Shown: one piece after another, positions 14,408 to 62,961 of the stretch
Numbering within the stretch: the stretch's first letter is position 1
Layout of the letters: each line of letters opens with the position of its first letter
Virus record (IMG/VR): IMGVR_UViG_3300013233_000773
Reading direction: 5' to 3' (one strand)
DNA length: 64,000 bases
DNA from: a virus
The notes under the pieces: model-generated
Told to the model about the DNA's origin: nothing
Database searches by the model: none
Seen by the model: the letters and a program-made list of their open reading frames with translations, nothing else
Translations under genes and position numbers: made by a program

Positions 14408-15268
14408 TCAGCGGCCAATCCTCAACCACAGCAAGAACCTGTACTTCGGAGGCTCCCTCACGCGCCTCAGACAGTTCAGTTCAGAATATTCGCGCTCCGA
14501 CATGGAACACCGCCTGGCCCTGTCGTAGACCGTCTTCTTGTGCACGGACGAACCATCCACGGCGACATAATGATAGCTGGGAGAGGTCATCCCGTCGGCC
14601 AACCAGTTGGCGGCAAGATAGATCGTCCCGGAGTGTCCCTGCGCAGGATCTGCGAACGACGTCAACAGCCTGACCTCAGGATTCTCCCGACCATACCTGG
14701 AGACAGCCCTGGACAACAACCACGACGCGAAGTTCTTCCGCTGATAGTCCGGGTGAAGGCAGAACCTCACTAGCTCCCGGACCTCGGACTGCTCAAGGCC
14801 ATGCCTGGACGCCATCTCCGCGCGCACCACCGGACCGACCGTCACCGCCCCGACCAGCGTTCCACCAAGGCGCGCACCGACCGTCCAGCCACGCCTGCCG
14901 GACCTACCCAGATAGTGGAAGGCCCCATAGAAGTCAAGGTACTCACTGGCCGGAACCGTCTCAAGACGGACCTCGTCGAACGAGAACTCCATCGGCGACA
15001 TGGCGAGCCCGATCCTCCGCTCCAACTCACCCAGGTCGTCGCCGACCACCATGAACCTGTCCCGGTAGCGGGCGAATCCCGCCATTATCTTCTCCCGCTC
15101 CTTCGGCTTCCTGGCAAGCCACTCGGACTTGGTCTCCACCACGAGGAACTCACCGTTCGACAACCAGATCCGGAAGTCAGGGACGAAGTGTCTCTCCCTT
15201 CCCCCCGAACTCATACGGCACGAGGTCAAAGTCCCTCTCCAGACGGACGACACGCCCGTCGGAGTCAC
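14408..15268 (-). CDS. C-terminal part of an HTH/TnsA-like endonuclease-Mom fusion (nuclease C-half plus Mom-like GNAT domain)
   Basis: RHFVPDFRIWLSNGEFLVVETK followed by FHYLGRSG...ELVRFCL...NFASWLLSRAV...SFADPAQGHSGTIYLAANW. Continues ORF 15177..16382 across a frameshift. Confidence 0.85.
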   Translation of the reverse strand: MTPTGVSSVWRGTLTSCRMSSGGRERHFVPDFRIWLSNGEFLVVETKSEWLARKPKEREKIMAGFARYRDRFMVVGDDLGELERRIGLAMSPMEFSFDEVRLETVPASEYLDFYGAFHYLGRSGRRGWTVGARLGGTLVGAVTVGPVVRAEMASRHGLEQSEVRELVRFCLHPDYQRKNFASWLLSRAVSRYGRENPEVRLLTSFADPAQGHSGTIYLAANWLADGMTSPSYHYVAVDGSSVHKKTVYDRARRCSMSEREYSELNCLRRVREPPKYRFLLWLRIGR

Positions 15269-27002: not shown

Positions 27003-28301
27003 TCAGTCTCTCACGAAGATATATTTTTTGAGAGGCGGCAGACGCACCTTCCTATAGCCGAACCTCCGCGCAAACTGCGCCTCGGTCATGTGGCTGGACC
27101 TAGCCCGGTTATAGAGCGTCTTCTTGTGCAGCTTCCACCCGTCCTCCCCCACGTAGAAGTAAGTCCCTGCAGTCTCGCCCATAAAGGACCAGTTTGAGGC
27201 GAGATATATCGTGCCGAGATGACCGTCCCCCGGACTGGCGTAGCTTATGACCGCACGGCACTTCTCCGGCAGCATCCTGACGAACCTCGACAGGGCACGG
27301 CTTGGCAGGTTGCGGCAGGACACCCCGCTCGATATGCAGAACCTAGTCAGCTCAAGGACCTCCCCATGTCCGAAACCGGTGCCCAGGCACGACTCGTTCC
27401 TGGTCGGATGGGCGAACACCGCTCCGCAGACCAGCTCGTCCCCGACGAACCCGCCAAGCTGCACACCGGCACGCCCCATCGAGCCGAGATAATGGTTCGA
27501 GGACATGAACGCACGCATGGCACCGAGGTCGACCACGCCGAACCGGACGTCGCGCAGCCTGACCTTCCTGACCGTCGAACCAAGGCCAAGCCACCTCTCC
27601 ACGGCACTCCTCACCCTTGCCGGATCATAGAGCTGATGCTCCCACACCACCCTAAGCTCGTAGCCCGGAAGGCCGGCTACGTAGGACGCCTTCGCCTCGT
27701 CCCTGCGGATCACGTACGGACGCGTGTGCCAGTAGTTGCCGTGCACCTCTATCAGGACGGTCTTCTCTCCACGGTCGACGGCCACGTCGAACGAGTACGG
27801 CCCCACGGCGACCTCCGTGCGGTACTCGACCCCCATCGACCCCAGTACGTCATGAAAGCGGACCTCCGTACCGGATACCCTTCCAGACTGCTGTGACCTG
27901 GCGACGGCATGGGCCCGGCGGTACTCCTCGCTCCTCCAGGCCCTGGCTGCAGCCTCCGAACACTTCCTGCGGCTAGACTGGTCGGACACGGCTATGGCAT
28001 GTCGTCTGCGGTACTCCGGATCGGACCAGAGCCTGGTCGAGGCGTCCTTTCTATGTCTGCGGTATTCTGTATCGGCCCATCGCCTCGAGGCGGCCGTGGA
28101 CAGACGCTGCCTGGTGCCGGAGCCTCTCGATGCGCACGATGGGCACCACCAGTCCATCTGTCCATCCCTTATCCTGGACTTGACGCGCACGGTGATGGCC
28201 CTGATCGTTCCACAGCCGTCGCAGCGGACCATGACCCTGGGCCTGTATGTTGACATGTCGGTGCCACCGAGTTCTCTTGCGGTCAGGTCCCAGTCTATCA
28301 T
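27003..28301 (-). mobile_element. Zn-ribbon/helical-repeat/Vsr(DUF559)-like endonuclease-Mom fusion between terminase and portal
   Basis: CDGC...CPSC; four W.D/S..YR repeats; GPYSFD...LIEVHGNYWH...RDEAK...VWE; then NHYLG...ELTRFC...SYASPGDGHLGTIYLASNW. Confidence 0.85.
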
Positions 28302-41016: not shown

Positions 41017-41253
41017 ATGACCATAGACCAGCTACAGAACGAAGTCCTCAACCTAGCGCACCACATTGAGGACGTCAAGAAGGCAGTCAACAAAATAAAA
41101 CCACGGGACAAGGAGCAATATGCAGACATCAAGCTGGCGATGTCCGGCATAGACGACATCATAGAGGGCATCGGCAGGATCAAGGACATGCTGCCCACAA
41201 AGCAAGCCTCTGAAATTGACAGAATAGCCGGTGAAATCGAAGAACAGCCCTAA
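41017..41253 (+). CDS. Small coiled-coil hypothetical protein on the opposite strand between the tail tube genes
   Basis: 78-aa ORF that fills the gap. Confidence 0.65.
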   Translation: MTIDQLQNEVLNLAHHIEDVKKAVNKIKPRDKEQYADIKLAMSGIDDIIEGIGRIKDMLPTKQASEIDRIAGEIEEQP

Positions 41254-41777
41254 GCCGCCCTGTTCGCCCTATCGTACCTCATCGAAACCTCGATCGTCAT
41301 GATCTCGGTGTCCGTATAGTCCAATTCCTTCCAGTTAACATCCTTTGGCCAGACCCCAAACAGCTCCCAGGACTCGGAGGTTGCACCAGTGCCATTCAGC
41401 ATCTGAAGCTTGGCGTTTTTCTTGTACTTATTTGGCGCGCTCACCGGAATATTGCCGGTATGGACCCCGACCACGCCGTTCAACCAGTCCCACATTGCCT
41501 TCGAAACATCAGGATTCTGCTCTCCATCGTACCACACCAGGCTGATCGGCTCCCAGCCGTGCTTGCCGGCGAAGTAAGCCTTTTCCTGATTGTGGTGCAT
41601 CTCCGGCTCTTCGAACGAAAATTGCGGTCGACTGGCCTCTCGAAGTATCAAGAGAACGTTCGAAGCCAACGTGCCACCGGCCGTACCGATCGTCTCGAAC
41701 GTCCAACGATGCTTTCTGCGGGTCTCGGTCAGGTTGCTCGGACCATCACCAACTCCGCCAATCGTAAAGCCAGGCAT
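41250..41777 (-). CDS. gp19: Tail tube protein (gp19-like), copy 1
   Basis: Start MPGFTIGG with GGAGG RBS. RKHRW, YFAGKHGWEPISLVWYD, WELFGVWPKDVNWKELDY, MRYDRA. Confidence 0.85.
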   Translation of the reverse strand: MPGFTIGGVGDGPSNLTETRRKHRWTFETIGTAGGTLASNVLLILREASRPQFSFEEPEMHHNQEKAYFAGKHGWEPISLVWYDGEQNPDVSKAMWDWLNGVVGVHTGNIPVSAPNKYKKNAKLQMLNGTGATSESWELFGVWPKDVNWKELDYTDTEIMTIEVSMRYDRANRAA

Positions 41778-41800
41778 GTCAACGTCCTCCTTAGTCCACG

Positions 41801-41822
41801 GATATCTTTGACCGTATTTGAC
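41801..41822 (-). promoter_or_regulatory. Tandem candidate late-promoter motifs GTCAAATACGG / GTCAAAGATATC
   Basis: Located 24-45 nt upstream of tail tube copy 1. Confidence 0.4.
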
Positions 41823-41827
41823 GGAAC

Positions 41828-42610
41828 ATGAAAGACTGGAAGAAAGTCCCGCGAAAACAGGCCAGACAGATAGACGAGAAATGGAACGAACTAAAGGCGT
41901 TCGATTGGGACACCGACAAGCTAAAGCCACCGCCGCAGCCGACACCGGACGAATACCTCACCGTGCACGACGCGGCAAGGGAGCACCCAAAAGGAGAACC
42001 GGCCAAGGAGCGCGTCAGGAGAATGCTGTGCCAGCTGCGCAGGACGACGCTAGCATGCAGCATGTGCCACCTGGGGCGCAGGCTACACCAGCGCGACCAT
42101 TACCTGTTCGATCCGCATGTCTTCCACGGAGGCCAGCCCGCCAGATGGGTTGTCGTCGGACAGAATCCAGGACTGGATGAGTGTCTACAGCACGAACCGT
42201 TCGTCGGACCATCCGGCAAGTTCTTCAACGAACAGATCGAGAGACATGGCCTGTCAAGGAATAACTTCTACATCACCAACGCGGTCAAGTGCTGCACGAG
42301 GGATAACGCAACCCCGTCCGCCGAGAACATCGCAAGGTGCGCCCCCATACTGCAGATGGAACTTACCATATTGAACCCGATACTGGTCATAACCCTAGGG
42401 GCGATTGCGCTGAAGGTTCTTTGCCCTGGAGCCAGGCTGGACACAGACCTTGGCAGGATAATTGAGTCTGAACGGTTCGGGGTCAAGGTTTTCTCAACCT
42501 ACCACCCATCACCAAGGAACATGGTAATAGAGTCCAGGAAACAGGCATTCGTGCGGAACATAAGAACCATATGCAGGATATATAGGGCCATGGCCAGTGA
42601 AGACCAATGA
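41828..42610 (+). CDS. Uracil-DNA glycosylase family 4 (4Fe-4S)
   Basis: CSMCHL, VVGQNPG, PFVGPSG, ITNAVKC, ITLGAIA, TYHPS. Confidence 0.92.
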   Translation: MKDWKKVPRKQARQIDEKWNELKAFDWDTDKLKPPPQPTPDEYLTVHDAAREHPKGEPAKERVRRMLCQLRRTTLACSMCHLGRRLHQRDHYLFDPHVFHGGQPARWVVVGQNPGLDECLQHEPFVGPSGKFFNEQIERHGLSRNNFYITNAVKCCTRDNATPSAENIARCAPILQMELTILNPILVITLGAIALKVLCPGARLDTDLGRIIESERFGVKVFSTYHPSPRNMVIESRKQAFVRNIRTICRIYRAMASEDQ

Positions 42611-42748
42611 AGGCCATGGCTCGATCTCGAGCCTGCCCCAGCTGATGAGGCCGGGTGGCCGTCATAAAGCTTCCAAAGAGAACTTGGATAGAGAACATCA
42701 ATATTAAACTGCGGCTGCATAGCCTCCCGTGGTTCGCGACCATAGGTG

Positions 42749-43126
42749 CTATCGATACTTCGGCTTGACCACCGCCTCCATGACCGGACGCGGACTGCGG
42801 ATCACGCCGTCGGAGGCAACCTTGCCCTTGCCCTTGCGCGGAGAAGGGACTCTGGAGCCCTTGGCCTTCAGGCCCTTTTTGTGGCCCTTCATGAGGTTCA
42901 CCCTCGCCACACGCTTCTTCTTCTCGGCTGGACCCTTGGCGGCGTCGATGTAGCTCTGCAACTCAGCCTCTGTTGCGCTCATGGCAGGCTTGCCGAGGTC
43001 AGCATCGAGCTTGCCCTGCTTCTCGGTGACCTTCTTCCCGCCGATCGTGCTTGTCTTCGTATCGTACTTCTCGGTGATACCGAAGCCGGCAAAGCCCTGC
43101 CCAAAGACGACTCGTGGAGCCTTCAT
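42749..43126 (-). CDS. Basic hypothetical protein, possibly an internal head protein
   Basis: 125 aa with GGAGG RBS. Preceded by a perfect GTCAAATATAGG motif. Confidence 0.7.
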   Translation of the reverse strand: MKAPRVVFGQGFAGFGITEKYDTKTSTIGGKKVTEKQGKLDADLGKPAMSATEAELQSYIDAAKGPAEKKKRVARVNLMKGHKKGLKAKGSRVPSPRKGKGKVASDGVIRSPRPVMEAVVKPKYR

Positions 43127-43160
43127 CTCTCTTCCTCCCTTGTGCCAGTAAACCTACCGG

Positions 43161-43173
43161 CCTATATTTGACG
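43161..43173 (-). promoter_or_regulatory. Candidate late promoter CGTCAAATATAGG
   Basis: Identical 13-mer to the one upstream of the tail sheath gene (55436-55448). Confidence 0.55.
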
Positions 43174-43815
43174 ACGGGAGCCAACAGGCACTCTGCACGC
43201 CTCCTGACGGTCCCCGCCCGGAGACCACTCCCTCCAGGACCGGAGAACGTCCGGATGATAGCGCTCGATCCTATTGCCCACGGCCCTCGAATGCTTGGTC
43301 AGCTTAGGCTGAAGATGGACCGAATCGATCCCACGGAAATGAAGACAGTCGGCGATCATGGACCTATGACACTTCCACCACAGGACCTCACAACACATGA
43401 TCCCGACGTTCCTGGTCCGCCCGGCCTCCACAAGCTCATCCACACCACCGAGAAACTCCGGCAGCGTCATGAACCACTGAAAATCCCACAGGCCCTGACT
43501 ATACCAGCTCGGCGACGCAGGATCCGCCTCCTTCTTCCCAGCAATCCGTTGCTTCGGAAACCTCCGCCCGGCATAAGCCTCGAGGTCGACCTCACGGTCC
43601 CTGAACTGTTCCTTGAGCGGCAGATGCTTCTCACGCCAGCCGCCAAGCTCAGGAACCCACCGATAGGAAGGGAGCCAGTTCTCGAGGAACTCCTTGTTGA
43701 ACTGCGGCCACTTCGAACCCGGATGCGACCGGACGTCCCACACCTCGTCAATGTTCGCTATCAGCGACTCGAACGACTCCTGGTCAAGCTTCGAATGCCC
43801 TATCGTAAAGATCAT
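43162..43815 (-). CDS. DUF488-family protein
   Basis: IFTIGHS, DVRSHP, ELGG, IMCCEVLWWKCHR. GAAAGGAG RBS before ATG 43815. Confidence 0.85.
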   Translation of the reverse strand: MIFTIGHSKLDQESFESLIANIDEVWDVRSHPGSKWPQFNKEFLENWLPSYRWVPELGGWREKHLPLKEQFRDREVDLEAYAGRRFPKQRIAGKKEADPASPSWYSQGLWDFQWFMTLPEFLGGVDELVEAGRTRNVGIMCCEVLWWKCHRSMIADCLHFRGIDSVHLQPKLTKHSRAVGNRIERYHPDVLRSWREWSPGGDRQEACRVPVGSRRQI

Positions 43816-43874
43816 GAATCCTCTCCTTTCGACCACTCCATATCGCAGCACCGGCCATGTGCAAGTCCATAAAG

Positions 43875-43947
43875 CGTCCTCGCCAGGACTCGAACCTGGA
43901 ACCTGCGGATTAGGAATCCACCGCTCTATCCATTGAGCTACGAGGAC
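43875..43947 (-). tRNA. tRNA-Arg (anticodon CCT)
   Basis: GTCCTCG/CGAGGAC acceptor stem, D-arm TAGCTCAATGGATAGAGC, anticodon arm GTGGA-TTCCTAA-TCCGC, T-arm CCAGG-TTCGAGT-CCTGG. CCA is not encoded. Confidence 0.95.
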
Positions 43948-45059
43948 ACTGAACCCACCATAGCAGCCCGCCTACGCACTACCGAACACACGTGAGCCAC
44001 CTGCTCATCGGTCAACCTGGGCGAAGACGGTAACACCACACACTCCCTGTTCAACCTAGAACTGTTGGCCTCCCCCAGGGGATTGACGAACTTCAGAAGA
44101 TGAGCATGCGCCGACATTGGATAGAACATCGGACGTACCTCAATCCCGGCCTCCGAATAGTACCGCTCCGCAGACACAAAGTCATCCCCCAGCACTCTGA
44201 TGCCTACAAGCCAGCACAAAGAATGCAAGGACCGTTCCTGCATGGCCACGCCAGGGATCCCGGTCAGGCCCCTACGATATCCATCATAGACCCTCTTCTT
44301 AGCGGCAAGGATCCCGTCAAGCCTCCCAAGCTGGGAATAGAGAAGCGCAGCGTGCAGGTTCGACATCCGATAGTTGTAGCCCAGGCAGCCGTGCACGAAC
44401 CTAAGCGGTGACTGGGCCTGGGCGTGCAACAGGTAGAGATGCAGCATCAGCTCAGGGTCTCCCGACAGCACAGCCCCACCCTCCCCGCACGTGACTGTCT
44501 TGTTGCCATAGAAGGACACCGAAGACGCCAGACACGCTGTCCCAGTGAGACCGCCATGGGGACCATAACGTCCGAGGAAGCCCTCGCAGTTGTCCTCCAC
44601 TATGACGTAGCCCGGCAGCCTAGACGCCAGAGCCGGCACGTCCACCGGATTGCCGAGGGCGTGGACGACGAGGACCGCAGCCTCCTCTGGGCCAAGTCCT
44701 GAAGCAACCTGGACGACCTCGTCAAGGTCGAAGTTCCAGGTGTCCAGGTCAGAACGCACAGGGATCAGGTCGAACTCCGGACCATACCTGAAGGCGTTGT
44801 ATGCCGCAACGTACGCATTGTCCGGCACGATCATCTTCCGGACGGACGGTCTAGCCCACGCCACTGCGTGTGCGAGAAGATGCGTCGCCGCAGTGCCGGA
44901 GCTGACAAGCAGGACATTCCTCACGGAGCTACGGGCACGCAGACGCTCTGCTGCCAGCTCCTTGTAGGCACCGAGCGAGGATACCCATCCGGACCTGACG
45001 GCGTCCGTTACCGCCAGGACATCCTCTTCAGTGACGTCTGGTTCGTAGACCGGTATCAT
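43938..45059 (-). CDS. DegT/DnrJ/EryC1/StrS sugar aminotransferase (perosamine-synthase-like)
   Basis: VSSGTAA, VVHALGN, IVEDNCE, SFYGNKTVTCGEGG, GYNYRM, LPSSP. Confidence 0.93.
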   Translation of the reverse strand: MIPVYEPDVTEEDVLAVTDAVRSGWVSSLGAYKELAAERLRARSSVRNVLLVSSGTAATHLLAHAVAWARPSVRKMIVPDNAYVAAYNAFRYGPEFDLIPVRSDLDTWNFDLDEVVQVASGLGPEEAAVLVVHALGNPVDVPALASRLPGYVIVEDNCEGFLGRYGPHGGLTGTACLASSVSFYGNKTVTCGEGGAVLSGDPELMLHLYLLHAQAQSPLRFVHGCLGYNYRMSNLHAALLYSQLGRLDGILAAKKRVYDGYRRGLTGIPGVAMQERSLHSLCWLVGIRVLGDDFVSAERYYSEAGIEVRPMFYPMSAHAHLLKFVNPLGEANSSRLNRECVVLPSSPRLTDEQVAHVCSVVRRRAAMVGSVSS

Positions 45060-45364
45060 CAGTATGTCTTGTGCTTCCTCTGAACGTGCCGTCCGTCGTC
45101 CAGGTCCCGCCCAGCCACCGCGTCCCGGACGATCTCGAGCACCTTCTCGTCCAGCTCGTCGATCAGGGCACTGCGCTGGACGTTCAGGTCACAGCACTTC
45201 TTTACGCTCTCATAGAGGTCACGCAGCCCGTCACTGCTGCCGAACCTATTCCTGAACTCGTCGAACGACATCCTGCGGACCTCGTATAGGAACTCCTGGT
45301 TGTTCCACATCTTCATGTCGACGGTCACCAGCTTGTCGACCAGACCGCCAAGCGTGTCGGCCAT
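45059..45364 (-). CDS. Small helical protein, DUF4254-like
   Basis: TLGGLVDKL...DLNVQRSALIDELD. GGAGG RBS. Confidence 0.6.
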   Translation of the reverse strand: MADTLGGLVDKLVTVDMKMWNNQEFLYEVRRMSFDEFRNRFGSSDGLRDLYESVKKCCDLNVQRSALIDELDEKVLEIVRDAVAGRDLDDGRHVQRKHKTY

Positions 45365-45379
45365 TCTTCACCTCCTAAG

Positions 45380-45388
45380 CATATGTAC
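45380..45388 (-). promoter_or_regulatory. GTACATATG motif (copy 3)
   Basis: Same 9-mer, directly upstream of the RBS of the 45364 gene. Confidence 0.4.
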
Positions 45389-45399
45389 ATCGCAGGAGA

Positions 45400-46110
45400 T
45401 CAGGACAGGTCCTGAAGAATGTCACTGCTCACCAGGGTAAACTGCCTGCTCCCAAGCTCCACATAGGCCCCGCCATGCGGCGGGCACCAGAACGCACGCA
45501 CCTTCCTCTCGACCAGCTCCACTGAATCGCCAGGAGCCACGCGACGGTGCTCCTCCATCGCCCTCCGACCGTAGTATCTTCCCCTGGCCTGCGGCCGACA
45601 CGGCAGGCGTCCACCGGGACGCTCCATAGCCATGCCCATCACGCCAGCCAGGAGCGAAGGTAGGTGCCCGCGCGCAAGGTCGCGCAACCCCTTTGCGGTG
45701 ATCCTCTCCGGATCCGGGACGTCGAACCTCCTCGTCATTATCACCGGCCCAGTGTCGAATCCCTCGTCCACATAGTGAGCCGTGCAGCCCCATCGCGTCT
45801 CTCCGTTCAGGATGCCGAAGTTATAGACCGCGAGCCCACGGTATTCGGGGAGCGGTGCGGGGTGAAGGTTAACCGTGCCCATGGGCAGTTCAATGAACTG
45901 CTCCGGAATACGCCGGTGATAGCAATAGGACACGGCCACGTCGCCCTCCGGTCTCTCGGGCAGCACGTCGTCCTCGGTCACCGCCTGCACCGAGTAGCCC
46001 AGGGACTCCAGGACGTCCGAGGCCTCACTGGCCAGTCTCCCCGGAGCAAGCAGAGTCACCATCATGGAGCCATCTCCTGCGCGCGTCAGCTGCCTATGTA
46101 TCCACAGCAT
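45400..46110 (-). CDS. Formyltransferase (sugar N-formyltransferase / Fmt-like)
   Basis: NLHPAPLPEYRG, GCTAHYVDEGFDTGPVI. Confidence 0.9.
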   Translation of the reverse strand: MLWIHRQLTRAGDGSMMVTLLAPGRLASEASDVLESLGYSVQAVTEDDVLPERPEGDVAVSYCYHRRIPEQFIELPMGTVNLHPAPLPEYRGLAVYNFGILNGETRWGCTAHYVDEGFDTGPVIMTRRFDVPDPERITAKGLRDLARGHLPSLLAGVMGMAMERPGGRLPCRPQARGRYYGRRAMEEHRRVAPGDSVELVERKVRAFWCPPHGGAYVELGSRQFTLVSSDILQDLS

Positions 46111-46158
46111 TTACCTCGGCACCATTTCCGATATGGCAGGACCGAAAGGAGAACGACG

Positions 46159-47061
46159 ATGCCGGTCACCGTCAAGGCTTCCCGCAGCAAGCTCATAGTA
46201 CCGTCCGGGTTCAACAACTATGACCTGTGCCTCAACCCATACGTCGGGTGCGGATTCGGATGCACCTACTGCTACGTCAGGTTCTTCGTCAAGGACAAGA
46301 ACCACGGCTGGGGAGGATTCGTCCGGACCAGGGACCACGTCCACGACAAGCTCGAAAAGGAGCTCACCAAGGCCAACGGACACGAAGGCAAGAGGATCGT
46401 CATCGGAACCATGACCGACCCCTACCAGCCGCAGGAACGCCGCTCCAGGCTCACACGGTCGGCCCTCAAGACGATCCTGGAGCACGGACGCTTCTCCAAG
46501 GTCGGCATCTTCACGAGGTCACCCATAGTCCTGGACGACATCGACCTGATCGCCCGCCTCCCAAAGGCCAGAGTCCACTACACCATCACCCCCTTCCGGA
46601 ACGACGTGCTGAGGCTGCTTGAACCGGTGCCCATACGCACCGAAAGACGGTTCGACGCCGTCAAGAAGCTCATCGACGCCGGAATCAGGGTACACCTGAA
46701 CGTGAGCCCGATCCTTCCAACGTGGAGCGAACCATTTATCGTCCCGTTCACCATGAAGATCTCCGGACTGGGCGTCTCGGAGTTCTTCGTCGACCCAATG
46801 CAGCCATACAGGGAAAGCTTCAACGCGGTATTCGACGCAGTAAGCCACCTAGAGGAATGGCCGACCATACGGGACTTGATGCTGGACAAGGACCGGTACA
46901 ACGAATGGAAGGACGGACAGGGACGGGCCTGGACGGACGCATGGCGGCGTCACGGTGACGAGGACACCCTGGCCATATGGTGCGACCACCAGCGCAAGAT
47001 CTGGCGCAACATGTCGACCGGCCAGCAGATGGACCACAGGCTATATGGGGACGACCTCTAA
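46159..47061 (+). CDS. Radical SAM protein, spore-photoproduct-lyase-like family
   Basis: LNPYVGCGFGCTYCY (CX3CX2C), IGTMTDPYQP. GAAAGGAG RBS before ATG 46159. Confidence 0.88.
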   Translation: MPVTVKASRSKLIVPSGFNNYDLCLNPYVGCGFGCTYCYVRFFVKDKNHGWGGFVRTRDHVHDKLEKELTKANGHEGKRIVIGTMTDPYQPQERRSRLTRSALKTILEHGRFSKVGIFTRSPIVLDDIDLIARLPKARVHYTITPFRNDVLRLLEPVPIRTERRFDAVKKLIDAGIRVHLNVSPILPTWSEPFIVPFTMKISGLGVSEFFVDPMQPYRESFNAVFDAVSHLEEWPTIRDLMLDKDRYNEWKDGQGRAWTDAWRRHGDEDTLAIWCDHQRKIWRNMSTGQQMDHRLYGDDL

Positions 47062-47151
47062 CGCCTGAAACGTACATAGATCCGGAAACGATTACGGACT
47101 GAAACAAAACTAAGACAGATCTCCTCCCTGCCCAAACCCCCCACGGGCAGA

Positions 47152-47181
47152 GCGCCGGGCGGCCTTGCGACCGCCCGGCGC
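47152..47181. terminator. GC-rich hairpin between convergent transcription units
   Basis: GCGCCGGGCGG / CCGCCCGGCGC 11-bp stem with a GCAA loop core on the minus strand. No clear U-tract. Confidence 0.5.
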
Positions 47182-47600
47182 AGATATGTTGCCGACCCGC
47201 CACGCGAAACGACACAGATGCCAGGAAGACACGAAGAGATAGAAGGAGACGCCACCAAGCCGGACCGCTACGACCCCGGTGCCATGGTCATCCTCCCGCA
47301 CGTATGCAACGACGAATGTCGCTGCTGGACGGTCTGAGCCCAGCACTATGTTCTGCGATGGTGCGGGGAAGGAGCGAGGCCTTCTCCGCCTATTGCATGA
47401 TATGGAGACCGGACCTGATCAAGGACGTGGACGTGCCACGGAGATACGCTGACCAAGCACCGGCGAGAGACGGTGCGTTAAGGAACGTTCCTCCCCTGGT
47501 TGAGCTCTTCCATAGGGAGACGTCCGAACATCTGCACCAAACGGCGACACGATGGTCTGGAACGCTTGATACACGTCACTTCCAGAGGACCCCTCGTACG

Positions 47601-48605
47601 TCAAAGGCCATAACCAATGCCGATAGTCTTGAACGCAACAAACGTGTTACTGCTATTAGAGGACATCGCCTCGAACTGACCATCTGCGCCGATCCTCACG
47701 ACTCCAAAGTTCCACCCCGCAGTAGCCCCCGCACGCGTGATCCTCAAGTCCCATGCTCCAGACCCATTTGGAGCCACCACCGCATTGTTCACGTCGCCTA
47801 CGTTTCCGGTTATCCTACATGTCGCCATGAAGGCAGTCTCCCACGGCTTCCTGCCTGCATTGACGTCCCACGGGGTTGTATGCGCAGCACCATTCGTGCT
47901 GACCGTACGGACCGTCGCGACCGTGTTAAAGTCAGCAGTGCTGTTGTTTGTTCCAACGTTCCCGAACGCAGTCATGGACGGCCTCGCCACGAAAGACAGC
48001 CTTCGCAACGCCGAATCAGTAGGAACGGCCATCGGGCGCGACAGAAAATAGTCGACCCCGCTCCCGGACATCTCCATACCGATGCTGAATTGCGTCGCGT
48101 CCAAAGGAATGGACCTGGACACGATCAGCCGCTCCCAGTTGGTATTCGCTTCATGATCCAGACTGCTGGTTGTGCCTCCGCCAGTCCCATTGCTCGTTAT
48201 GAACAGCCTCACGGCATTCGATGCCACAATGGACATCTTAACCTCAGCAGAGAAAGTGAGCGTCAGACCAAGCGTTCCAAACAGCATGGAGTCAATCGTG
48301 CTCGACTCACCCTTGACGTATGGAATCTCCACGATAGGATCACTGGACCCGACACTGATCACGGACACCTTCAACGACATCCCGGCTCCACCCGGAACCG
48401 TAGTCGAATCCCCGGACACGAGAATGTTCGGAGACCCAGGCCCGACCGTAGACCGCCACCCCACGACCTCATGATTCTTTGAGGACGAAGCGACGTTGTT
48501 CCGCTGGATCGTGGTCGTATGCGTGCCCATGAGCACGCCTAGTCCAGGATTTATGACAATATTGCTCTGAGGCCTAACGGCGCCCTGTCCAAACACTATA
48601 GCCAT
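47601..48605 (-). CDS. Putative virion protein with carbohydrate-binding-like beta domain
   Basis: 334 aa, Ser/Thr/Gly-rich. WERLIVSRSIP resembles CBM-like jelly-roll strands (tentative). Confidence 0.6.
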   Translation of the reverse strand: MAIVFGQGAVRPQSNIVINPGLGVLMGTHTTTIQRNNVASSSKNHEVVGWRSTVGPGSPNILVSGDSTTVPGGAGMSLKVSVISVGSSDPIVEIPYVKGESSTIDSMLFGTLGLTLTFSAEVKMSIVASNAVRLFITSNGTGGGTTSSLDHEANTNWERLIVSRSIPLDATQFSIGMEMSGSGVDYFLSRPMAVPTDSALRRLSFVARPSMTAFGNVGTNNSTADFNTVATVRTVSTNGAAHTTPWDVNAGRKPWETAFMATCRITGNVGDVNNAVVAPNGSGAWDLRITRAGATAGWNFGVVRIGADGQFEAMSSNSSNTFVAFKTIGIGYGL

Positions 48606-48620
48606 ACAGTATGTTTGATA

Positions 48621-51600
48621 TTACAGGTCCAACAGGAACCTCCTCTTCCGACCGCCAAACACCCTCCGGAAACCACCGGCCTCCGCATACTCCCGCTCAG
48701 TCAACGACATCTTCCTGGCATGCTGATACAGCGTCTTCTTATGCAGAACATAGCCCTCACCATCCACATACCAATAGTCCGGCTGCACGAACCCATCCAA
48801 GCGCCAGTTCGAAGCAGAATAGATCGTCCCCACATGATTATACGTCTCATCGCTGAACGAAACAAGACGCCGCACCACAGGACGCAGCTCACGGACCAGC
48901 CGCACCGCCCTAGACAGGAACCACGAAGCAAGGTTCTTCCTACGGAACGCAGGACGGATACAGAACCTAGAAAGCTCAAGCACCTCCCGCACCGACATCC
49001 CCATCCTCGAAGCAACCTCCCTACGGACCACTGGCGCAAACACCGCAACCGCAGCCAAGTCCCCGCCACGGAAACACCCCACCTTCACCCCACCCCGCCC
49101 GATGCACCCAGCATAGTGATGCCTCGCCACGAACGCAGAAGCCTCCACCATCCCGATCTCCCGCACCGACAGCTCATCGAACGAAAAGTCAACCGCATCC
49201 TCCACGGCAAGGCCCGTCCAATACCGCACCAGGTCAAGGACCCTACCGCGAGCATGGAACTCATGCTCCCACACATGCTTCACCCGATACTGCGGAAAGT
49301 ACCTCGCCACGTACGTCGCCTTCGCACGGTCCCTCGCGGCCACCGAGCGCAGACCATGCCAATAGTCGCCCTGAACCTCCACCAGAAGACCATGCTCCGG
49401 CAGGAAAAAGTCGAACACATAGAACCCCACGCGAAACTGCTGAACATACTCGATCCCCAGCTCATCCAGGAACGAAGAAAAGAGCACCTCCACGCTCGAC
49501 ATCCTACCGGACTGCGAAGAACGGATCACCGCCATCCGCTCCCGGAACTCAGGATCAGCCCATGCCCTCCTCGATATGGCTGACATCTTCGCCCGGAACT
49601 CGTCCGAGGAGAAGACCTCCATCATCCGCTCCCGGAATTCAGGATCCTCCCACGCCCTACGGGCAGACTCCGAAGCCTTCGCCCGGAACTCATCCGAAGA
49701 GAAGACCTCCATCATGCGCCTACGGAATTCAGGATCCGCCCACATCTCCCTGGAAGATTCAGCACACTTCGCACGAAACTCATCCGAGGAGAAGACCTCC
49801 ATCATCTTAGAACGGAACTCAGGGTCTTCCCACCTCCTCCTGATTGCTTCTGTCATCCGCTCACGGGATTCTGGATTGACCCATTTCTGTCTAGCGACCT
49901 CAATCATCCTGGAACGGAACTCGGGATCCGTCCACTTCTCGCCGACCAGCCCTGACATCTTCTCCCGAAACTCGTCAGAGGAGAAGACCTCTGCCATCCG
50001 CCTGCGGAATTCAGGATCCGCCCATCTCCCTCTGACCAGCCCGGACATCTTCTCCCGAAACTCATCCGACGAGAAGACCTCCATCATCCTAGAACGGAAC
50101 CCTGGATCCTCCCACATCTCCCTAGAAGATTCAGCACACTTCGCACGAAACTCATCCGAGGAGAAGACCTCCATCATCTTAGAACGGAACTCAGGGTCTT
50201 CCCACCTCCTCCTGATTGCTTCTGTCATCCGCTCACGGGATTCAAGATCCTCCCACGCCCTACGGGCAGACTCCGAAGCCTTCGCCCGGAACTCGTCCGA
50301 AGAGAAGACCTCCATCATCCGCTCCCGGAATTCAGGATCCGCCCACGCCCTACGGGCAGACTCCGAAGCCTTCGCCCGGAACTCATCCGAAGAGAAGACC
50401 TCCATCATCCGCTCCCGGAATTCAGGATCCGCCCACCTCTCCCTGGAAGATTCAGCACACTTCGCACGAAACTCGTCAGAGGAAAAGACTTCCACCATCT
50501 TAGAACGGAACTCAGGGTCTTCCCACCTCTCCCTGACGAGTCCAGACATCTTCTCCCTAAACTCGTCAGAGGAAAAGACCTCCACCATCCTAGAACGGAA
50601 CTCAGGGTCCTCCCACCTCTCCTTGGAAGCTGCGGACGCCGCCTTTCTCCGAACAGGATCGTCCCATGTCCTTGCTGAAGCCCTGCCTACGGACTGCCTG
50701 TATTCCTCGGAAGCGAAGATCTCGAGCATCCTGGACCTGAAACCATCGTCCGCCCACAGCCGCCTAGATGTCTCCGACATCCTGCGCACGACCTCAGGAT
50801 CGGAATAACGGGCAGCAAGCGAACTTACTACCCTCTCGCGGAACCCATCCTCCCTCCAGAGGTTCCTGATGGTCTCGGACATCCGGGCCCTCCTGTCCGG
50901 ATCTGACCAGACATCACGGGACACCAGCCGCATCCTCTCCCTGAACGCCTCCGACGAGAAGACAGCCATCATCTTCTCCCGAAACTCCGGATCCGCCCAC
51001 CTCTCCCTAGAGATCCTAGACATCTTCTCCCGGAACTCGTCCGATGAGAAGACCTCCATCATCCTAGAACGGAACTCAGGATCCTCCCACAGGTTCCTTG
51101 ACCTTTCAGACATCATCCTGCGGAACTCATCCGAGGAAAAGACCTCCATCATCTTAGAACGGAACTCAGGGTCTTCCCATCTCTTCCTGACCAGCTCAGA
51201 CATTTTCGCCCTGTTCGCAGGATCAGACCAATGCCTAGAGACTGCACTCGACACCCGTTCACGGTATCCAGGATCCTTCCAAGCATTGCTTGCCGCCGAA
51301 GACAGTCTCCTACGACGCTCTGGGTCCGCCCACAGCTGCTCCATTCTGTCACGAAAGGCAACGGTCCACGCACGACGACCGAATTCGGACATTAGGCTCC
51401 TATGCTCGTCGCTGGCCATCCGCTTCTCGGCAGCAGCACGGCGCTCCGGGGTCCACGCACACCGCCCGCACTCGGCCATTCGCCGCCTGAATTCCTCTGA
51501 GCTGCGCAATTCAGAGACACGCTCACGGAACTCAGAATCCCTCCACATCTCCACCGAACGCGCCGACGCCCTCCTGATATACTCCGGATCATGCCACAGC

Positions 51601-52439
51601 TCTGCCATCCGCTCCCGGAACTCAGGAGTCCACGCACGCCGCCCATCCTCCGCAGCACGGGCCGTCTTCATCTCCCTGAACCCAGGCTTCAACCACGCCT
51701 CCCGACCAGCCGCAGACGCCTTCTCCCTGAACTCAGAAGAATCCCACACCGCACGCATCCGCTCACGGAACGCAGGATCCGCCCACATCCTCCTGGAACG
51801 CTCTGACATCCTCCCAAGGAACCCAGGATCCCCCCACAGCTCCGCCATCCGCTCCCGAAACTCAGGAGTCCACGCGCGCTTCCCGAACTCGCTCATCCGA
51901 CGCCTGAACTCATCATCCACCATCCGCTCGCGCCACCACCCCCTAGCCTCGCGCCAGAACTCCTCCGAAGCAGACCTAAGCTGCCTCCGGAACTCGTCGG
52001 TATAGATCCCGTCGAACTTCCCGTCACGATGAGCATGTGAAAGGCCACAGGCATTGCAGCGGAACCTTCCATCGTTCCTGCGGCGGTTCGCACGCACGTT
52101 CCTCAGCCTGGCCCGCACCTCCTTGCCGCAGAAGTCGCACTTCTCCGACACCATCGAACTGGACGGAGTCCCATGCCTCTCACGGGCCCTGGCACGGATC
52201 TTCTCCCGGTACTCGTCCGTATGCACATACCCGTTCACCACGCACCGCCGGCACACAAACTGACCATCGTTCCTCTTCTGGTTGTTCAGATAGGAACCAT
52301 ACTTGACCTCCTGCTCCACACCACACCGGTCACAGGAGACCATCACCCTGTCGGAACGCCTATGCTTGCCCTTAGTCAAGACCATGACAAAGCCCCACAA
52401 CAGCCCTCGATTACATATCCGACACGGCAACATTGACAA
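48621..52439 (-). mobile_element. Giant Zn-ribbon/helical-repeat/Vsr(DUF559)-like endonuclease-Mom fusion
   Basis: Two CxxC...CxxC ribbons; about 35 W.DP.FR repeats; GFYVFDF...LVEVQGDYWH...RDRAK...VWE; Mom-like HHY...ELSRFC...NLASWFLS...SFSDETYNHVGTIYSASNW. Confidence 0.9.
49520..51960 (-). repeat. Coding repeat array of 51-bp (17-aa) and 90-bp (30-aa) units
   Basis: For example, WEDPEFRSKMMEVFSSDEFRAKCAESSREM and WADPEFRERMMEVFSSDEFRAKASESARRA recur, some as exact copies. Boundaries approximate. Confidence 0.93.
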
Positions 52440-52453
52440 CCAAGTACAGATAC

Positions 52454-52487
52454 GCAGATGGCCCAGGATTACTCCTGGGCCATCTGC
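52454..52487 (-). terminator. Perfect 15-bp hairpin after the tail sheath gene
   Basis: GCAGATGGCCCAGGA / TCCTGGGCCATCTGC with a GTAA (GNRA) loop on the minus strand. Weak U-tract. Confidence 0.7.
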
Positions 52488-52510
52488 ACTGAACCATCGA
52501 TGGTCAAGTC

Positions 52511-55378
52511 CTACTGGACAGTACTGGTGACTACACCGCCAGCCTGCAGAACCTCATCCGAGGAGAACGAAGCGTCAGTCCTGAGAACAACCAGATTGAG
52601 CTGTATGAACTCCGCTGTCCTTGTGGGCTTCAGGAAGAAAGCAACGTGAAGCTCATTCCGATCGATGCGCTCAGGCGTATTGTTCCGTTCGTCGCTCACC
52701 ACCAGGAATCCGTTCAGCCCTCTCCTGGCCTGTATGTCGGCAAGGAAGGATTCGCTGACGTTCACCACGCGTGCCCGGGTGATCTCGTCGTTTGGCTCGA
52801 AGACGAACTGCCGGAGGAAGTTGATCGCGTTCTTCTTGATGAAGATCAGGAGCATCCTGACGTTCACCCGGTCTAGGGCAGACTGCTTGCGCTGGAGCGT
52901 CCGCTGTCCAAAGACCGTTATCCCGTCCTGTGGGAAGTTGACGATCGGATTGACCGCGTTCCCAAAGCCGTACATCAGGTCGCGCTCGCCCTGGGTGAGG
53001 TCGACCTCAGTGTCGAGCGGGGTGAGGAGCCTGCCCCTGGTGGTGCCGGCTGGGGCGAACCAGATCTCTGCATCGCGCTCGGTCCTAGCATAGACGCTAC
53101 TGACCTGCCCACTGGGCGGGACGAAGATGGTCTCGCCGCTGAACTGGTCGAAGATCTTGAGCCAGGGATGGTAGAGTGCTCCGTAGCTGGAGTCGATGGA
53201 GTTGGCCAGGTCGCTGAAGAGTATGCCATTGTGCCAGTCGACGACCTGCTGGGCGCGGAGTCCGAATGGGCTGTCGACGATGAAGAGGCAGTCTCCGCGC
53301 CGTTCACACATCTGGAGGGCCTGCCCGATGACGGCTCCGGAGGTGACTCCGGGGATGACCAGGAGGGTGATGTCGAAGACCTCGGGATTCTGGAAGGCGA
53401 AGATTCCGGTCTCGAGGTTGGGGTTGCCTATGATGGCCCTGTCCAGCTCCGAAGAGAAAGCGGGGTCGGTTGGGATGCCGTTGGCCGCGCCGGTGAAGCC
53501 GCTCCTGTTGAACTCTCCGGGCACTCGGACCTCGAAGGAGGCGAGGTCGTTGACCGGGTCGTTGGCGAGGAAGGCTGGTCTCGGGATCCATTGGATGAAG
53601 GCGTTGCCGTTGGGGCCTCCGAACCTGGATCCGGCGTTGATCACGTTGCCGACGTAGCGTTCCTCTCTGGGGTCGAAGGAGACATCGTCCACGGCGTCGA
53701 CGGTGAGGTTGTTCTTGTCCTCGATGACGATGCGGAACCTTCCCGCAGCGTCGGTGCCGCCTCCTGTCTGGGTGAAGACCTGGAGGGTGACCTTGAAGTC
53801 GTCGATCCAGGTGCCTGCGCTCTTCGAGACGAACCAGCCCACTACGTTTTCATAGTAGATCGAGTCGGCGAGGCATTCGTCGCTGGAGGGGTCGACCTCG
53901 CAGGAGAGTGGCGAGGAGGGAGTGATGGTTCCGGACTCCGGGAGCAGGACGCGGGGGTCGTTGAAGACCTGGAACTCCCTGGTGTAGGGGAAGAGGATAC
54001 CGAGCTCCTCGGCGAAACGGAGTGTCTTGAAGTGGGATCCGTCGGCCTGCATCTTGATGCGGTCGAAGCGGTTGTCGGAGGTGGTCTCGATGACGATCTG
54101 GACTTCGCCACCGGGGATGATGACGGTGAAGGCGTTCCAGAACCTGGTTCCGCCGTCGATTCCACCAAGGTGTATGGCGGAGGCTATCGCGGTGGAGGAC
54201 TGGGCGAGCCCGACGGGGACGCTGAACTCGATCTCGGTGGTAGACTGCTGCCCGATGACCTCGACGTTGACCCTGTTGTTGCTGGTGGTGATGTCGTAGG
54301 GGCCTGCGGTGGTGGTGAGCAGGTGGCTGCGGGGGATGTCGAAGGCCCACAGAACCTGTCCGACCTCGAGAGCGAAGGCCTCGGTCCCGGTCAACTGGAT
54401 GCTCTCTCCGGCGATCCTCGTGGTGAAGCAGACGGTCCCGTCCGCTTCTGCGACGGCGAGGTATGGGTCGGAGTCCGGGACGAGGGCGTTGACCGCGTCT
54501 GCGAAGGTGGTCGCGTCGGTGAAGGAGGACCCGTCGGCGAGGGAGTAGGTGGTTGCTCCTGCTCCGGCGACGAGGTCTGCCTCGACGGCGAACGAGAGGT
54601 TGTCCGGTCGTACGGTGAAGGTGAAGGTGTCGTTGGCGGCGATGGGGACGGTCCCCGTGACGACGACCTTGAACAGGAGCCCCTGTCCGGCGTCGATCAC
54701 TTCAGACTCGCCTGGGGTGGCGGACTCGACTAGGACGTCGGTGAGGACGGTGGCTCCGTCGGAGTTGCGGATGACGTCGAAGGTGGCTCCGTCAAGGAGG
54801 GAGCCGCCGGTGGTGGGGACGTCGCTGGTGATCAGGACGGTGAAGCTGTCGTCAATCGGTCCGGTGTAGCCGGCGAGGTCCACGAAGGTGAGGGTGGCTG
54901 AGGCCGGTCCGTCGGTTGGGGTGATCTCGACGTCGTTGTAGTCGATGTCGGTGACGAGGGCGGCGTGGAACTCGAGGGGATCGTCTGCGGTGATTACCCT
55001 GGTGCAGATCTTGCCGTTGTCGATGCCGGAGAAGACGGCTATACGCCCCCAGCCCTTGCCGCGGGCTCCGCTGTTGTCGATGCAGACGCTGGAGAGTTCC
55101 TCTGGCTGTCCGTCCTCGCACTCTACGCCGACCCGCATGATCCAGGCGCGGTTTCCCTCCTCGAAGTAGGAGAGGGCGGCGTATCCGAGGAAGGACTCGG
55201 GAAAGGGTTCGCCGAAGACGTCGATGTACTGCTGGGCGTTGCTGACGAAGGTCGGCTCCTGAACCGGACCCTTCTTTGCAGTGCCGATGAAGGCCGGTGT
55301 GAGCGCTCCGGTGGCCGCTGGGACGATGCTGAGGTCGATCTCGCGGGGGAACACTCCGGGCGAAAGGAAGACGGGCAT
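52511..55378 (-). CDS. gp18: Tail sheath protein (gp18-like)
   Basis: MPVFLSPGVFPREID, FIGTAKKGP, SSYGALYHPW, VFVPPSG, WFAPAG, NPIV, FGQRTL, DRVNVR, FVFEPND. Confidence 0.97.
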   Translation of the reverse strand: MPVFLSPGVFPREIDLSIVPAATGALTPAFIGTAKKGPVQEPTFVSNAQQYIDVFGEPFPESFLGYAALSYFEEGNRAWIMRVGVECEDGQPEELSSVCIDNSGARGKGWGRIAVFSGIDNGKICTRVITADDPLEFHAALVTDIDYNDVEITPTDGPASATLTFVDLAGYTGPIDDSFTVLITSDVPTTGGSLLDGATFDVIRNSDGATVLTDVLVESATPGESEVIDAGQGLLFKVVVTGTVPIAANDTFTFTVRPDNLSFAVEADLVAGAGATTYSLADGSSFTDATTFADAVNALVPDSDPYLAVAEADGTVCFTTRIAGESIQLTGTEAFALEVGQVLWAFDIPRSHLLTTTAGPYDITTSNNRVNVEVIGQQSTTEIEFSVPVGLAQSSTAIASAIHLGGIDGGTRFWNAFTVIIPGGEVQIVIETTSDNRFDRIKMQADGSHFKTLRFAEELGILFPYTREFQVFNDPRVLLPESGTITPSSPLSCEVDPSSDECLADSIYYENVVGWFVSKSAGTWIDDFKVTLQVFTQTGGGTDAAGRFRIVIEDKNNLTVDAVDDVSFDPREERYVGNVINAGSRFGGPNGNAFIQWIPRPAFLANDPVNDLASFEVRVPGEFNRSGFTGAANGIPTDPAFSSELDRAIIGNPNLETGIFAFQNPEVFDITLLVIPGVTSGAVIGQALQMCERRGDCLFIVDSPFGLRAQQVVDWHNGILFSDLANSIDSSYGALYHPWLKIFDQFSGETIFVPPSGQVSSVYARTERDAEIWFAPAGTTRGRLLTPLDTEVDLTQGERDLMYGFGNAVNPIVNFPQDGITVFGQRTLQRKQSALDRVNVRMLLIFIKKNAINFLRQFVFEPNDEITRARVVNVSESFLADIQARRGLNGFLVVSDERNNTPERIDRNELHVAFFLKPTRTAEFIQLNLVVLRTDASFSSDEVLQAGGVVTSTVQ

Positions 55379-55435
55379 TTGTTTATCTCCTCGTTCCGGC
55401 ATTTGGCATTCAGCGTCTGCTGTCCGCCGAGACAT

Positions 55436-61112: not shown

Positions 61113-61155
61113 GCCAACATCCTCCTGAATAGGTTTGTCCGGAAGGAGAGCACAG

Positions 61156-62961
61156 ATGGCCAGGCAGATTGTGCAGATCGACCTAGACGAACTACGGAAC
61201 GACTACCTGTCCGGAGCATCCATGCGCAGCCTCGCCAGGAAGCACCGGACCACCAGGCCGACCATAGCCAAGAAGCTGCGCAGCATGGGCGTCAAGATCC
61301 TATCGTCAAGGGAACGGGTGACCTCCGACCCAGAGGCACACAGAAGGGCGTCCGCAAGGAGGGGGCATAAAAGCACGACGGCCATGCCCGTAAAGGAACG
61401 GCTCGCAGCAACGACGAACGAATGGGACAAACAAGGATTGCTTAGGAAGCTCTATGTCGACGAGAAAAGGAGTTGCGCGGAGATAGCGAAGAGATTAGGG
61501 TGCCACCGGGAGACGATCAGGTCCCGCCTCCACCGGCACGGTATACCTGTTAGAAGCATCGGCGAGGCAAGCCGCACTGCAGCTGCAAGGCCAGACACCA
61601 GGGCCAGGAGATCAAGGGCGTCCTCGTCCAACTGGCTCGACGAGGACTACAGGAAGAGGGTGTCCGGTAAGCTGCGTGGTAAGAGCGTCAAGATGCCTCC
61701 GGAGCACTCGAACAACGTCTCTGCGGCAATGACTAGGCACTTCTCGGACCCAGACAACGTGCGCAGGCATGCAGAGAAGATAAGGAGGTCATGGAATAAG
61801 CCGACTGAAGCAATGCTGAAGCACCTGGGGAACCTGCACGACGGACTCCGCAACGATGGCGAGATGCGCAGAAAGCTGCTAAGGACGCAGTCTGACAGGT
61901 TCCGTGAAGAGAAGCGCGAGCAGGCCTTCAAGCACTGGGCAGACGAAGATTTCCTTAAGAAAGGCCTGCCGACGATGAAGAGAAAGTGCTCCGAGGCCGC
62001 GCGGAGGGCGTGGAAGGACCAGGTCTACCGCAGAAAGGTCCTAGACAGCATCTCAAGGAACTCCACCAGCCGCCTGGAGAGGGTGACAACTGGAATCCTG
62101 GACGACCTTGGGATCGCCCATTGCAAGAGACGATTCGGCCGCCAGATGTTCGAGTTCGACGTGTGCATAGGAGCCGACGAGCTTCGTCAGGACCGCGGTC
62201 TACTGATAGAGGTCAACGGCCTCTACGTCCACAGCCGGAGCAAGCAGATAGAGCGGGACACAAGGAGACATCGGTTCTGGGAAAAGCATCTCTCCGACGA
62301 GTGGAGGTTCGAAACCGTCTGGGAGCACGACATGAGCGCATACAGGGTCTTTTTCAACAGGATGGTCTCCATGCTCGGAATCAGGCCGGAACGAAGGAGC
62401 GTAAGACTTAGGGATCTTGAGTTGACGCAGATCGAGCACGGGGAGGCGTCGTCCTTCTATGACAAGTATCACTACCTCGGTCGACACAGGCGCGGCGTCC
62501 ACCTCGGTGCCATGCTCGACGGGTCGCTGGTGGCCTGCTGCGCCTTCGCCGCGCCAACGAGGATGGAGACTGCAGCCCGCCTTGGTCTGGAGTATGGCGA
62601 GGTCCGTGAGCTGTCCAGGTTCTGCATCTCTCCCCTGGTCCATGATCCAAACATGGCATCGTTCGTCCTGTCTAGGTGCAGGAAACTGTATTCGTCCGGA
62701 CATCCAGAGGTGCGGGCCTTCGTAACGTTCGCAGACGGCGAGATGGGGCACCTCGGGACGATGTACCTGGCCTCGAACTGGAAGCTGGACGGGACCACGG
62801 CCCCGTCCTATTTCTACGAGATGGATAGCCTGCGATGGCACAAGAAGACCGTCTGGGACCATGCCAGGAGCGTCGGGGCCAGCGAGAGGGAGTTCGCCGA
62901 GGCAGTCGGGATGACCAGGGTGCAGACCGGCAGAAAGAGGAGGTTCGTCCTGTTCACATGA
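61156..62961 (+). mobile_element. HTH/helical-repeat/Vsr(DUF559)-like endonuclease-Mom fusion
   Basis: Two HTHs; W.D...R repeats; FEFDVCI...LIEVNGLYVH...RD...VWE; then YHYLG...ELSRFC...NMASFVLS...TFADGEMGHLGTMYLASNW. GAAGGAG RBS. Confidence 0.85.

Follow-up and report, generated by a model that had tools for sequence, protein, structure and literature searches.

The gene at positions 48621-52439 on the minus strand of IMG/VR virus record IMGVR_UViG_3300013233_000773, of which a stretch of 64,000 nucleotides (nt) was analyzed (the window), encodes a nuclease-Mom fusion protein of up to 1272 amino acids (aa) whose N-terminal half is dominated by an unusually long array of short helical repeats. 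We interpret it, with a probability of roughly 0.6, as a free-standing homing-endonuclease gene of the Hef/EDxHD type with a C-terminal Mom-like GNAT domain, which occupies a variable slot behind the tail sheath gene of a T4-like phage and whose array has grown by in-frame duplication. A previous inspection of the letters and open reading frames, here called the sequence-only reading, had proposed a nuclease-Mom fusion in which two zinc ribbons are followed by about 35 Trp-initiated units. Profile, fold and catalytic-residue matches bear out the fusion, and both ribbons and the array are present, our own count being 37 Trp-cut segments between residues 162 and 965.

The assignment of the nuclease is based on a family profile of 91 members, which matches the catalytic domain of I-Bth0305I (3r3p) with an E value of 6.8e-12 over 91 of 105 residues. 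Weak Pfam matches of the same domain are to Vsr, MTES_1575 and DUF559. The catalytic residues of I-Bth0305I are E170, D196, H213 and D222, and Vsr H64 has N208 as its counterpart (PMC3239194). These four residues align to the E of an 'LDE' motif, D1010, H1028 and D1037 of the protein studied here, while Q1023 stands at the position of N208. Across the 91 members, D1010, H1028 and D1037 show little or no variation. The phage 'Hef' enzymes have been placed in the EDxHD family (PMC3239194), and Hef of phage U5 is cited as a functional homing endonuclease (PMC2988022). These alignments place the nuclease in the Vsr-like EDxHD homing-endonuclease family, of which I-Bth0305I and Hef are members. The proteins also agree in layout, with an N-terminal DNA-binding region and a C-terminal nuclease, but I-Bth0305I has two NUMOD2/helix-turn-helix (HTH) motifs and lacks a Mom domain, whereas the present protein combines zinc ribbons, ~49 NUMOD3-like helices and a Mom-like domain. 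Genes of the I-Bth0305I and Hef-like type are either free-standing or borne by introns or inteins in phages (PMC3239194, PMC2988022).

The C-terminal domain matches Pfam PF25680 with 89.7 bits (cut-off 27.1, E 3e-25), the family profile matches phage Mu Mom (8bv8) with an E value of 3.6e-13, and a Foldseek search with an AlphaFold2 (AF2) model of residues 853-1272 returned the same Mu Mom structure as the top PDB match (E 2e-11). The residues H58, Y59, R111, S124, D149, R151 and Y159 are important for Mu Mom activity (PMC13219725). Six of these seven are conserved, and the essential R151 is replaced by Thr both here and in the family consensus. The nuclease-Mom fusion itself is not new. Fusions of a restriction endonuclease (REase) with Mom, several per genome, were previously noted in jumbo phages (Iyer et al. 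2021, PMC7824862), and PHROGs 559 and 3339, which are named 'HNH/homing endonuclease', cover the pair, as does PHROG 22215. The published REase-Mom description, however, is without a repeat array (PMC7824862).

At E<=1e-30, an exhaustive HMMER search with residues 870-1272 yielded 418 representatives, a number that rises to 8247 at E<=1e-3, and the layout of repeat, nuclease and Mom domain is common to the 418. The medians over 153 family sequences are 517 aa in length and 4 Trp-initiated units (W-units), so that the protein studied here is ~2.4 times as long as the median. Counted by a common pattern, it has 32 W-units, followed by proteins of 748-764 aa with 17. Among 5.8 billion proteins, a word-based search limited to lengths of 700-2226 aa found no other long array, with best matches of 705-764 aa. 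The only other very long family match (P0074, 1326 aa) was rejected as a second case, as its length is due to an unrelated N-terminal part and not to an array. In this metagenomic protein a fibre-like, beta-rich region of 950 aa precedes a complete unit of zinc ribbon, repeat, nuclease and Mom, and either two genes were merged in the call or the fusion is real.

The window contains four nuclease-Mom paralogues. The three further copies lie at 14408-16382, 27003-28301 (-) and 61135-62961 (+), and one of the three is split in two frames. They differ in their N-terminal DNA-binding parts, which are HTH or zinc ribbon, and the copy at 61135 has matches to the HTH of sigma-70 region 4. The copies at 27003-28301 and 61135-62961 have 3-5 units in front of the same nuclease-Mom pair, as had been noted before. 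The description of the array as expanded thus agrees with the unit counts of family and paralogues and with the size of the genes found at the same genomic site in related loci, which encode only 483-586 aa.

The 37 Trp-cut segments comprise 15 of 30 aa and 11 of 17 aa, the remainder being 12-34 aa long, which confirms the proposed module sizes of 17 aa and 30 aa (13+17) and corresponds to ~49 single-helix modules. Tandem Repeats Finder detected arrays with a 90-nt period at 49580-50629 and 50931-51203, plus one 372-nt period. AF2 models of residues 853-1272 and 592-965 reached pLDDT values of 95 and 92, respectively, and in these models helices of 12 and 16 residues alternate strictly with one residue between them, the breaks coinciding with the D in DPEF and with the S preceding DEF. 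The modules are predicted to be joined by one-residue, aromatic-stapled corners, and each helix carries only a narrow hydrophobic stripe. Searches of the PDB with the array model found no solved structure that resembles it, and no TALE (transcription activator-like effector), PUF, PPR or HEAT solenoid was among the matches. The best PDB match in Foldseek was GerD, which is weak (E 0.22). In the VIA fold search, the top rows were long filament proteins with a root-mean-square deviation (rmsd) of more than 100 Å, and STPR, a DNA-tracking helical repeat (5d23), gave a weak local match (Z 4.5, rmsd 3.9 Å over 64 residues). The charge of the array changes along its length, since residues 162-420 have a net charge of +16 and an isoelectric point (pI) of 10.9 and the expanded residues 421-965 a net charge of -9 and a pI of 5.5. 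The N-terminal regions of relatives have net charges of +13 to +41 and pI values of 9.1-10.0.

NUMODs are defined as modules that travel with unrelated nucleases. The W.(D/N)PE(F/Y)R units found here behave in this way, as they are associated with EDxHD nucleases, with HNH inteins, with an intron-encoded HNH enzyme (I-LimI of Dickeya phage LIMEstone1) and with GIY-YIG nucleases (the enzyme of Ralstonia phage RSF1 and, in T4-like phages, a Seg-like gene). In inteins of gyrA, the T4-type portal and other genes they follow the HNH motif. The inteins of gyrA, of a gyrB-type topoisomerase subunit, of the T4-type portal and of another phage protein (P0006-P0015) have an HNH motif and 6-12 W.DPEFR units, and a Chloroflexota gyrase A of 1721 aa is an example of a protein with such an intein. 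A GIY-YIG Seg open reading frame (ORF) of phage T4 (locus L010, phage T4 record, ~71.36-71.45 kb, minus strand) has a 'W.TPEYREKF' unit immediately before the canonical NUMOD3 'HTPETINKMKES'. This unit is covered by both the Pfam NUMOD3 model and a hidden Markov model of the array module, and at the sequence level the T4 enzyme links both motif types in one classical endonuclease.

A direct comparison by hhalign placed 'DPEFR.RMSE' of the module on 'S.ETK.KIS' of NUMOD3 with a score of 9.4 (P 0.005), while 100 column-shuffled controls gave a mean of 3.2 +/- 0.8 and a maximum of 6.6. Among predicted structures, compared with predictions, the array matches a viral NUMOD3/GIY-YIG cluster of the Atlas (TM 0.50 over 284 residues) and a 'nuclease associated modular domain' protein of AFDB (E 6e-3). 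NUMOD3 (PF07460), a short DNA-binding helical motif of the I-TevI, Seg and Mob endonucleases, likewise consists of tandem helix modules of ~16-17 aa on unrelated nucleases, and its pattern polar-(P/E)-E-x-(K/R)-x-K-(I/M)-S seems to recur in the array. They differ in that the array has conserved Trp/Phe staples and a 13+17 pairing, whereas NUMOD3 usually occurs in 2-4 very basic copies. The direct evidence for kinship with NUMOD3 is mixed, since the Pfam model finds no match in the array, but the suggestion that the array is NUMOD-like is upheld by a register match above all shuffles, by the endonucleases in which the units occur and by the NUMOD3-bearing proteins that are its nearest predicted shapes; motif and model comparisons support the repeat as a NUMOD3-like nuclease-associated module.

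Automatic annotation points elsewhere. On the array, the GerD models Pfam PF17898 and NCBIfam NF040801 score 179.7 bits (cut-off 29.5) and 162.9 bits (cut-off 100), respectively, with many partial stretches, and the family profile matches GerD 4o8w with an E value of 6.7e-4. The GerD core (PF17898, 4o8w) has the same DPE(F/M)-helix motif and the same 13+17 spacing. GerD, however, is a trimeric rope of ~115 aa in a lipoprotein of Bacillota, while the array belongs to a phage nuclease with 37 units and no lipoprotein signal. We therefore rejected membership in GerD, since the strong scores reflect a shared helix motif and both setting and unit number differ. Existing annotations label relatives 'GerD', and the repeats of P0002-P0004 also score far above the GerD cut-offs. 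The label is either an annotation trap or a sign of real distant kinship between the GerD core and the NUMOD-like module.

The array is old, with two recent duplication events. Compared pairwise, the 30-aa units have a median DNA identity of ~70%, with most pairs at 60-85% and a few at 92-96%. Only the pairs starting at residues 669/699 and 746/870 reach 99%, and both are identical at the protein level; all exact repeats in the array are shorter than 120 nt. Synonymous differences between the 30-aa units are near saturation, with a proportion of differing synonymous sites (pS) of 0.54-0.61 and a synonymous divergence (dS) of ~1. The ratio of nonsynonymous to synonymous divergence (dN/dS) is 0.07-0.11 in codons 1-20 of the unit (framework) and 0.69-0.70 in codons 21-30 (variable segment), which means that the variable segment evolves ~7 to 9 times faster, although these values come from non-independent pairs of units and are indicative only. 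Because dS is ~1 and the framework dN/dS is so low, most units look like old copies that were selectively maintained by purifying selection. Old and selected units in turn argue against an assembly artefact, functionless slippage junk and a purely recent slippage. Of the exact duplicates that had been taken to imply recent slippage, the pairs 669/699 and 746/870 are real, but for the remainder the median DNA identity and the near-saturated synonymous sites speak against this origin. The 30-aa composite unit also occurs in the family members P0002 and P0005 and is ancestral in the family.

The earlier observation that variation is concentrated after the FR.K motif is confirmed by the entropy of the 30-aa units, which peaks at positions 21, 23-27 and 29-30, whereas K22 and R28 are kept. 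In the last ten residues, eight positions vary, and they do so in four or five correlated multi-residue types.

The gene at 52511-55435 (-), directly next to the nuclease-Mom gene, is the tail sheath gene, through which we collected 80 related IMG/VR loci with 50-75% sheath identity. Downstream sequence of 2 kb or more was available for 63 loci, of which 11 have a nuclease-Mom gene directly after the sheath gene and 52 have none there; directly before the sheath gene it is found in 4 of 67 loci. The copies at the downstream site are 483-586 aa long. Those of loci L033, L022 and L019 have the same two-zinc-ribbon N-terminus as the protein studied here, including the stretch into the first repeats, and by this resemblance are positional orthologues with ~6-8 modules. 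In the gene-less locus L017, sheath and tube lie within 0.8 kb, while in the window ~10.5 kb of accessory genes (41945-52510) separate the sheath gene from the tube homologue (41250-41945). Homing-type mobility is supported by these data because the gene is present or absent at one fixed intergenic site among relatives. A search of cultured phages found no near-identical DNA.

Taken together, these results suggest how such a protein might work. The N-terminal half would be the DNA-contacting and tethering region, formed by the zinc ribbons and a chain of NUMOD3-like single helices. This chain would have reached ~49 modules as 30-aa units, and blocks of several units, were duplicated in frame, mostly long ago, with selection preserving the framework in each unit. 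The protein could be anchored on DNA by its zinc ribbons together with the basic proximal modules, while the long, roughly neutral distal rod may serve as an extended tether or ruler, positioning both the dimerising nuclease and the Mom domain either some way off or over an extended length of DNA. Genomes without the gene would be cut by the nuclease and would acquire a copy of the gene during repair, and the Mom domain might modify adenines of the phage's own DNA, either for self-protection or as a general anti-restriction measure.

Several observations weigh against this interpretation. The expanded array is net acidic while the arrays of relatives are strongly basic, which is odd for a DNA-binding region, and ~49 modules would cover far more DNA than any known homing site. 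Pfam NUMOD3 (PF07460) gave no match at E<=10 on pieces of the array or on relatives. The replacement of R151 by Thr means that the chemistry of the Mom domain, as read from the alignment, may differ from that of Mom, a tRNA-dependent transfer of glycyl to the N6 of adenine in double-stranded DNA. Finally, no sequencing run that could support the array length was listed for the gene or for the sheath gene, and searches of IMG/VR and metagenome contigs with the C-terminal half gave only distant matches and thus no close relative that would reveal copy-number variation.

Among the alternatives, the one we consider possible, although clearly less probable than homing, is a conflict system resembling restriction-modification, in which Mom labels adenines in the DNA of its own phage, the nuclease turns on host or competitor-phage DNA without this label, and the array sets the site. 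It is compatible with the homing-endonuclease interpretation and corresponds to the published view of the jumbo-phage REase-Mom fusions with their several copies per genome (PMC7824862). The conservation of most Mom catalytic residues and the four paralogues with different N-terminal DNA-binding parts are in line with it, but the tested members of the nuclease family, I-Bth0305I (PMC3239194) and Hef (PMC2988022), are homing enzymes, and presence or absence at a single intergenic site is the classic footprint of homing. We think it rather unlikely that the W.DPEFR helix pair is a new extensible nucleic-acid-tracking repeat of which ~49 units are kept because either the variable residues of the second helix read DNA unit by unit, in a programmable manner unlike that of TALEs, or the unit count gauges a fixed distance from an anchor site to the point of nuclease and Mom action. 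It is unlikely as well that the array is a self-associating rope like GerD, that is, a rod for oligomerisation or scaffolding instead of a DNA-binding surface. The GerD scores far above threshold (179.7 and 162.9 bits), the common 13+17 rhythm with the 4o8w match (E 6.7e-4), the rank of GerD as the best, though weak, PDB fold match and the narrow hydrophobic stripe of each helix would fit a rope; yet the module accompanies four different nuclease classes, as DNA-binding NUMODs do, the arrays of relatives are strongly basic, and the AF2 monomer is already confident. A three-copy complex prediction of residues 609-728 (score 0.00, fold pLDDT 46) counts neither for nor against self-association.

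A modular reader in the manner of TALEs, as the sequence-only reading had loosely suggested, would have each 30-aa helix pair recognise one or a few bp through residues 21-30, so that the array spells a long target. TALE repeats and the array do share tandem helical units with variation focused in one segment. This segment, the last ten residues with K22 and R28 kept, evolves ~7 to 9 times faster than the framework, and the weak local match to STPR repeat 5d23 points in the same direction. We nevertheless consider such a reader improbable. TALEs are superhelices of 33-35-aa two-helix units with a hypervariable di-residue and near-identical DNA copies, whereas the array has units of 30 or 13/17 aa, no two-residue code, highly diverged DNA (dS ~1), an acidic charge and no match to a TALE, PUF, PPR or other solenoid in fold searches. 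Eight of its last ten residues differ, in four or five correlated multi-residue types and not at one or two code positions, the dN/dS of this segment is 0.7 and not >1, and such a reader would imply a target of well over 100 bp. Since the expanded array is slightly acidic and the arrays of relatives are basic, a spacer fits better than a base-reading surface, and from the sequence a role as tether or ruler appears likelier than a TALE-like code. Least probable of all, and in our view very improbable, is that assembly inflated the array or that the array is slippage debris without a function in a selfish gene undergoing decay. In favor of such an origin are the repetitive nature of the region, the two unit pairs with 99% identity and a search that listed no sequencing run for the gene; however, the longest exact repeat is shorter than 120 nt, most units differ at ~30% of their bases with nearly all differences synonymous and a framework dN/dS of 0.07-0.11, and the frame is open over 3.8 kb.

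The features of the homing-endonuclease gene are listed in Table 1. The ATG at residue 19 is the likely start because the ESM Atlas record begins there and the N-termini of orthologues also align from this point.

Table 1. Coordinates in the window of the nuclease-Mom gene, its parts and the preceding spacer.
Feature	Positions	Strand	Basis or remarks
Maximal ORF, 1272 aa from TTG at 52439	48621..52439	-	Open-reading-frame list and translation
Likely coding sequence, 1254 aa, ATG at 52385 (residue 19)	48621..52385	-	ESM Atlas record start and orthologue N-termini
Zinc ribbon 1, residues 36-66, CxxC...CxxC	52242..52334	-	Sequence; weak Pfam zinc-ribbon matches; orthologues L033, L022, L019
Zinc ribbon 2, residues 101-131, CxxC...CxxC	52047..52139	-	Sequence; weak Pfam zinc-ribbon matches; orthologue N-termini
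Proximal array, residues 162-420, more degenerate and basic (net +16, pI 10.9)	51180..51956	-	
Expanded array, residues 421-965, mostly 30-aa units (12- plus 16-residue helix; net -9, pI 5.5)	49545..51179	-	
Two 90-nt units in tandem (residues 669-698 and 699-728), recent duplication	50256..50435	-	Identical protein, 99% DNA identity
Unit 746-775, within a 372-nt block duplication	50115..50204	-	Partner is unit 870-899 (49743-49832); protein identical, DNA 99%
Vsr-like (EDxHD family) PD-(D/E)xK nuclease, residues ~966-1080	49200..49544	-	Catalytic E in 'LDE', D1010, H1028, D1037
Mom-like GNAT domain, residues 1081-1272	48624..49199	-	Pfam PF25680 E 3e-25; 8bv8 by sequence and fold
Stem-loop, 15 bp, in the 71 nt that separate the stop codon of the sheath gene from the endonuclease gene	52454..52487	-	-40 kcal/mol, z -6.8

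The stem of the spacer stem-loop is a perfect 15 bp and has no U tract. Hairpins limit read-through or translation of homing genes in T4, and by analogy this one may limit read-through or translation of the endonuclease gene. Two repetitive open frames run antisense to the repeat array, at 49576-50808 (+, 410 aa) and 50869-52005 (+, 378 aa), and are shadows of the repeats and not genes. The accessory insert further contains a radical-SAM-like gene at 45664-47061 (+) (phrog_13321), which is also present in L033. For the 334-aa ORF at 47601-48605 (-), downstream of the endonuclease gene, no family match and no homologue in the 80 related loci was found.

Homing endonucleases usually contact DNA via a few small modules. 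The gene described here is of a familiar selfish type, and its accessory module is also of a known kind, but the variant is quantitatively extreme and looks selectively maintained; with ~49 modules, its array would be the longest of the NUMOD type among the searches made. That so many modules were kept suggests that the length of the array can have a function of its own, be it as tether, ruler or long-range DNA tracker. The repeat is widespread, has no Pfam family of its own and is currently mislabelled 'GerD' by automatic annotation. Together with its relatives, the protein provides a natural length series of 3-5, ~8, ~20 and ~49 modules on one catalytic chassis, which could reveal how such modules set the distance or specificity of cutting and of Mom-type adenine modification.

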